From Escherichia coli (GTDB lineage Bacteria > Pseudomonadota > Gammaproteobacteria > Enterobacterales > Enterobacteriaceae), in the NCBI RefSeq assembly GCF_003334355.1, contig NZ_QOWP01000026.1: a DNA stretch of 55,000 bases, one strand, 5' to 3'. Of this stretch, positions 52,491 to 53,492 are shown piece by piece (positions within the stretch are counted from its first letter, which is position 1; every line of letters starts with the position of its first letter). The notes under the pieces were generated by a model. It was given only the letters and a program-made list of their open reading frames with translations, had not been told where the DNA came from and made no database searches. A program made the translations under genes and the position numbers.

Positions 52491-53492
52491 TCAGAGTTTA
52501 GCGAATTTTTCGAGGGTGCGAATAAGCTGCGTGACGAAGCCATATTCGTTATCGTACCAGGCGACCGTTTTCACCAGTTGTAAATCGCCCACGGCGGTAA
52601 TTTCCGTTTGCGTGGCATCAAACACCGAACCGAAATGGCTGCCAATGATATCGGAAGAGACTATTTCTTCATCGGTATAACCAAATGACTCGTTATTGGT
52701 GGTTGCTTGTTTAAGTGCGTTATTCACCTCTTCGGCAGTCACTTTTTTTCCGAGAATGGACACCAGCTCAGTGACCGAACCTGTTTTCACCGGCACGCGT
52801 TGCGCATGACCTTTCAGTTTGCCGCTCAGTTCCGGGATCACCAGACCAATGGCTTTTGCCGCCCCCGTAGTGTGGGGAATGATATTTTCTGCCGCTGCGC
52901 GTGAAGCACGTAAATCTTTACCACGTGGGCCATCCACCAGTGACTGGGTGCCAGTATAGGCATGAATGGTCGTCATCGTGCCGACTTCTATCCCGAAACT
53001 GTCATGCAAGGCTTTGGCCATCGGCGCAAGACAGTTAGTGGTGCATGACGCCACGGAAACAATGGTGTCGTTGCCATCCAGAGTGTCGTCATTGACGTTA
53101 TAAACGATAGTTTTCATTTCACCGGCAGGGGCGGAAATCAACACCTTCTTCGCACCAGCATCAAGATGCGCCTGCGATTTCTCGGCGGAGGTATAAAAGC
53201 CAGTACATTCGACAATGATTTCTGCACCTTTCGCTTTCCACGGAATATTTTTAGCCTCTTTTTCGGCGTAAACCGCGATACTTTTCCCATCAACGATAAG
53301 TGAATCTTCCGTAAAATCAACACTCCAGGGGAATGGTCCGTAGTTTGAATCATGTTTCAGCAGGTAGGCGAGAATTTTTGGGGAAGTGAGATCATTAATA
53401 GCGACAACGTCTATGTTGCTTTTGACTTCAAGTAATCGACGCAACACCAGTCGACCGATACGACCAAAACCGTTAATACCAACTTTACTCAT
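52491..53492 (-). CDS. gapC: Glyceraldehyde-3-phosphate dehydrogenase paralogue, intact reading frame
   Basis: Uninterrupted 333 aa ORF with NAD-binding N-terminus ([10 protein letters not shown]) and catalytic signature [10 protein letters not shown]. Confidence 0.85.

Follow-up and report, generated by a model that had tools for sequence, protein, structure and literature searches.

The gene gapC lies near one end of the window, by which we mean the whole 55,000-nucleotide stretch of Escherichia coli DNA that was analysed, between the genes aldA and cybB. The six-frame list of open reading frames (ORFs) places it at 52491..53492 on the minus strand, with an ATG start, 333 codons, a TGA stop inside these coordinates and zero internal stops, and an earlier sequence-only reading, which had described an intact 333-codon GAPDH gene at this position, was correct on this point. 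gapC is convergent with aldA (51010..52449, plus strand) and divergent from cybB, and the same aldA-gapC-cybB order is present in MG1655, AR_0061, O157:H7 and ST131, as would be expected of orthologous genes. The G+C content of gapC is 48.1% versus 49.9% for the whole window, and there is therefore no clear compositional sign of a foreign origin.

Upstream of gapC a Shine-Dalgarno sequence (AGGAG; 53499..53503, minus strand) can be read 6 nt before the ATG, and is kept in all 8 of 8 aligned strains. The divergent intergenic region between gapC and cybB, where the gapC promoter is expected, spans 188 bp (53493..53680) and is mostly conserved across the same 8 strains. A consensus scan upstream of gapC returned one weak sigma-70-like site on the minus strand (-35 TTTCCA and -10 CATAAT; 53687..53658), which is no more than was seen in shuffled sequence, and for this reason we do not name a promoter for gapC. 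Between the convergent stop codons of aldA and gapC a terminator scan found a G+C-rich hairpin at 52460..52483, made up of a 9-pair stem with 7 G-C pairs and followed by CTTTTACTCA. Its RNA fold has a predicted energy of -18.5 kcal/mol (z = -4.7), and the element probably serves as a terminator for both aldA and gapC.

Regarding cybB itself, the mechanically called ORF runs from an ATG at 53645 to 54211 (188 aa), while RefSeq gives a gene of 531 bp (176 aa) with a start near 53681; the longer ORF overlaps the sole promoter-like site seen for gapC. Just downstream of cybB, as in K-12, is the sRNA gene rydC (54222..54285, minus strand; Rfam RF00505, 92.5 bits), and ydcA is also among the genes beyond cybB.

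Protein sequence and enzyme identity

The product of the window gene scores 447.3 bits against the NCBIfam equivalog model for type I GAPDH (TIGR01534), over its curated cut-off of 367.2, with the match covering GapC residues 3-325 and model positions 1-330 of 330. Both GAPDH domains are recognized by Pfam, namely the N-terminal NAD-binding Rossmann domain (Gp_dh_N, PF00044; residues 3-102, E=2.3e-35) and the C-terminal catalytic domain (Gp_dh_C, PF02800; residues 155-313, E=1.2e-57). The catalytic signature and the NAD-binding motif that had been noticed in the sequence-only reading are both in place: the former occupies residues 147-156 and holds the nucleophile Cys150 (codon at 53043..53045, minus strand), with its partner His177 encoded at 52962..52964 (minus strand), and the latter is a GxGxxG motif at residues 5-14, accompanied by Asp34. 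A residue check found Cys150, His177, Arg11, Ile12, Asp34, Ser120 and Asn315 all present. The gapC ORF is thus far from chance, and is not a chance ORF. Together with the ORF list and the TIGR01534 and Pfam matches, the identity of the protein with a crystallised enzyme (below) assigns the coding sequence to the type I NAD-dependent phosphorylating GAPDHs.

More specialized members of the superfamily fit GapC poorly. Against the GapA-type model (NF011954 / PRK15425) it scored 300.6 bits for a cut-off of 662; against the two Epd models it scored 280.2 versus 539 (NF010058) and 276.6 versus 530.55 (TIGR01532); and against the model for ArsJ-associated GAPDH (NF033735) it scored 306.8 versus 450, with no arsJ gene adjacent. 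GapA (b1779), the main glycolytic GAPDH, has the fold, the two domains, the catalytic Cys and His and the reaction in common with GapC, but the two proteins are 46% identical and differ in regulation and in genomic locus, which makes GapC a paralogue. Epd (GapB), the erythrose-4-phosphate dehydrogenase, shares the GAPDH superfamily and the domain layout; however, GapC falls under the Epd cut-offs, and the protein to which it is identical is a phosphorylating G3P dehydrogenase.

That protein is EcGAPDH1, which has been crystallised by Zhang et al. 2021 (PDB 7C5F and related structures; PMC8615399). GapC of the window is 100% identical over its 333 residues to residues 20-352 of 7C5F and to related entries, its DNA is identical to that of the AR_0061 gene, and its place between aldA and cybB is the same. 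We detected no difference that would separate it from E. coli GapC as known from UniProt (P58072 in O157:H7), RefSeq (WP_000048667.1 in AR_0061) and PDB (7C5F). EcGAPDH1 was reported to form NADH from D-G3P and phosphate with a KM of 0.73 mM for G3P, in an assay performed at pH 10 and 50 C that for this reason says little on physiological flux (PMC8615399). In the same study activity was abolished in the C150A mutant, dropped by about 10^4 in C150S and was about 8000-fold lower in H177A, and the crystal structures show a thioacyl intermediate and bound 1,3-BPG. Intact gapC is therefore already known, being routine in the NCBI annotation pipeline, present in UniProt (from O157:H7), crystallised and assayed; a qPCR assay on urine has also relied on the gene as a species marker.

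The K-12 allele and its distribution

In MG1655 gapC (b4493; formerly gapC_1 b1417 and gapC_2 b1416) is annotated as a 1001-bp pseudogene. It occupies the orthologous locus, and the flanks, the Shine-Dalgarno sequence and the terminator are the same as in the window. Pairwise alignment of the two genes gave nine differing positions (99.1% nucleotide identity), of which six are synonymous changes. The seventh is C52G, by which Arg18 becomes Gly (R18G) relative to the window. The remaining two interrupt the reading frame: A115T turns the Lys39 codon AAA into a TAA stop, and the deletion of one A from a run of seven (gene nucleotides 744-750) leads to an in-frame TGA at codon 251. In the window codon 39 is AAA (53376..53378, minus strand), and the A7 run is intact (52743..52749, minus strand), where K-12 has A6. 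The earlier statement that K-12 gapC is an interrupted pseudogene is thus borne out by the alignment, and the K-12 gene is a derived, inactivated allele.

Across complete E. coli genomes gapC was found in 5418 of 5426, with a nucleotide identity of 95.9-100% to the window gene in the 5410 genomes that had at least 80% coverage, in line with the near-identity expected between orthologues. Five of the 5430 gapC matches fell on plasmid-labelled records and some genomes had the gene in two places, which may reflect misassigned replicons or duplications. An exact 61-mer with the K-12 TAA codon occurred in 1152 complete genomes and an exact 61-mer with the K-12 A6 frameshift haplotype in 1046, counts which, resting on exact 61-mers and evenly spread samples, under-count lesions other than the two of K-12. 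In agreement with the frameshift count, among 39 full-length matches sampled at even spacing, 7 were 1001 or 1000 bp long instead of 1002. Roughly four-fifths of sequenced E. coli therefore have a gapC of intact length, and roughly 20% share the K-12 allele.

Carriers of the nonsense allele are not restricted to the laboratory. Ten exact carriers among the evenly spread matches listed included human, cattle, pig, chicken and duck isolates, as well as NCM3722, MG1655 and laboratory-developed strains. In the blood isolate p10A (NZ_CP049081.1) gapC is identical to the K-12 allele and annotated as ‘frameshifted; internal stop’. The neighbouring cybB of this isolate (1..212) is annotated as truncated as well. 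The sewage isolate FACU 2024 has the K-12 lesions plus one further 1-bp deletion and carries the same annotation. A different route was taken in the raw-milk isolate SCPM-O-B-7615 (NZ_CP144926.1; examined segment 2501..4678), where an IS1A element takes the place of the 3' end of aldA and the greater part of gapC; this is an independent IS-associated gapC loss.

The presence of the double-lesion allele in about 20% of complete genomes, natural isolates included, means that gapC was lost in nature, before the isolation of K-12. The loss is older than laboratory domestication and did not arise through passage in the laboratory, and the K-12 allele is the mark of a natural subclade. This slightly corrects a phrasing in the literature, as found in PMC2949598, in which laboratory strains are said to accumulate mutations, and where gapC is described as intact in environmental isolates versus truncated in laboratory strains, a finding credited there to Espinosa-Urgel and Kolter. 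It also follows, with about 20% of genomes being without a functional gapC, that the gene is dispensable in some natural settings.

Selection and function of intact gapC

Six intact alleles (the window, O157:H7, ST131 and three divergent strains) were compared in 15 pairwise combinations. These gave a dS of 0.05-0.21, a dN of 0.001-0.007 and a dN/dS of 0.012-0.051; 60 of the 67 segregating sites were at third codon positions, and six amino-acid positions varied. As estimated from these six alleles, intact gapC is under strong purifying selection.

From these data we consider it almost certain that E. coli gapC is present in the window in its intact and functional form, in the usual position between aldA and cybB, and that its product is a bacterial-type phosphorylating GAPDH of type I, dependent on NAD. 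The enzyme is a homotetramer. Its reaction begins with the attack of Cys150 on glyceraldehyde-3-phosphate, which yields a thiohemiacetal; hydride transfer to NAD+, aided by His177, then gives the thioacyl enzyme, and phosphate attacks the latter to release 1,3-bisphosphoglycerate. In the cell GapC might contribute GAPDH flux during slow growth or carbon limitation, or in fresh water. The suggestion of a possibly functional second GAPDH, which had been put forward from the DNA letters, is supported beyond what was expected of it, both by the measured activity of the 7C5F-identical protein and by the strong purifying selection.

Several published observations touch on when gapC is expressed. A ChIP-seq peak of sigma-S RNA polymerase has been reported between gapC and cybB of K-12 (PMC4447067), the K-12 gapC fragments are up in slow-growing PTS-minus cells in an rpoS-dependent manner (PMC2759082), and gapC_1 is listed among the genes that are affected under carbon-limited growth (PMC4512719). 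In EPEC, where gapC is intact, the transcript was detected and was lower in a csrA mutant (PMC6333774). The literature further describes gapC expression as preferential in fresh water; an adaptive role in water is mentioned in PMC1796617, which cites Espinosa-Urgel and Kolter. Both UniProt P58072 (GapC of O157:H7) and Hidalgo 1996 are cited in PMC10614358.

It could be argued that the ORF is intact but silent, a cryptic gene en route to decay that has so far been free of lesions in this lineage. The loss of gapC in K-12 and some 1150 further genomes has caused no obvious harm, independent lesions are known (the IS1-associated truncation of SCPM-O-B-7615 and the extra 1-bp deletion of FACU 2024), and no strong promoter consensus lies upstream of the gene. 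On the other hand, a dN/dS of 0.01-0.05, with third positions accounting for 90% of polymorphisms, cannot be reconciled with neutral drift, the Shine-Dalgarno sequence and the region upstream of the gene are conserved, and published work reports gapC transcripts in EPEC and also, despite its lesions, from the pseudogene of K-12, so that we regard a silent gene as very improbable. That the true role of GapC in vivo is something other than a glycolytic or gluconeogenic GAPDH (an Epd (GapB)-like dehydrogenase of erythrose-4-phosphate, a GAPDH linked to arsenate as is the partner of ArsJ, or a protein that moonlights at the cell surface or in secreted form) would fit with GapA already serving E. 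coli glycolysis and with the frequent functional divergence of GAPDH paralogues, such as Epd in E. coli and the paralogues of Pseudomonas, but is hardly credible for a protein that scores far under the Epd and ArsJ-associated GAPDH cut-offs and over that of type I GAPDH, has no arsJ neighbour, and in its 7C5F-identical form converts G3P in the presence of NAD+ and phosphate and has been crystallised with 1,3-BPG bound.

Returning to a functional type I GAPDH, how its intact and inactivated alleles came to coexist can be addressed more tentatively. One possible account, to which we would give slightly less than even credence, is that gapC is a natural presence/absence-of-function polymorphism, with a single ancient allele combining K39stop and the A-run deletion (found in human, pig, cattle, chicken, duck and dog isolates) and with strong purifying selection in the other lineages. 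Such a pattern would fit a non-redundant niche role. GapC could, for example, be a GAPDH isozyme dependent on RpoS that serves cells outside the host in the cold, in water or during starvation, and one subclade living mostly in the host would have dispensed with it.

As a discovery an intact gapC carries little weight, being the standard state of E. coli. The mildly new and quantitative point is how common the K-12 double-lesion allele is, natural isolates included. Of modest practical value is that metabolic models built on K-12 are without a GAPDH isozyme that is present in most wild E. coli.

ydbA and the lineage of the window

The sequence-only reading had combined the intact gapC with a ydbA free of insertion sequences, and had seen in the two a non-K-12 lineage that retained ancestral gene content. 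The ydbA of the window (30732..36793) indeed contains neither IS2 nor IS30, both of which interrupt the K-12 copy. It is, however, not intact: compared with K-12 and with AR_0061 it lacks a single T near position 33784, so that the frame is lost at codon 1037 and two ORFs result, one of 1037 aa and one of 987 aa. Either ydbA is a pseudogene here or the missing base is a sequencing error. With this 1-bp frameshift ydbA provides no evidence of intact ancestral content, and of the earlier statement on ydbA the part on insertion sequences stands. The window gene is also about 1.2 kb shorter in its tandem repeat than the intact ydbA of AR_0061. Collinearity of the window with AR_0061 was considered and rejected, the ydbA of that strain being 7224 bp long and about 1.2 kb richer in tandem repeats.

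The window clearly comes from a lineage other than K-12, as seen both from a ydbA without IS2 and IS30 and from the last 25 kb of the window, for which the best complete genome is only 99.5% identical. What gapC itself adds is limited; its intact form is the majority state and has already been published, and it therefore conveys little lineage information beyond ‘not the K-12-like subclade’. The complete genomes closest to these last 25 kb are small (4.6-4.9 Mb) and belong to isolates of pig, bird and human origin.
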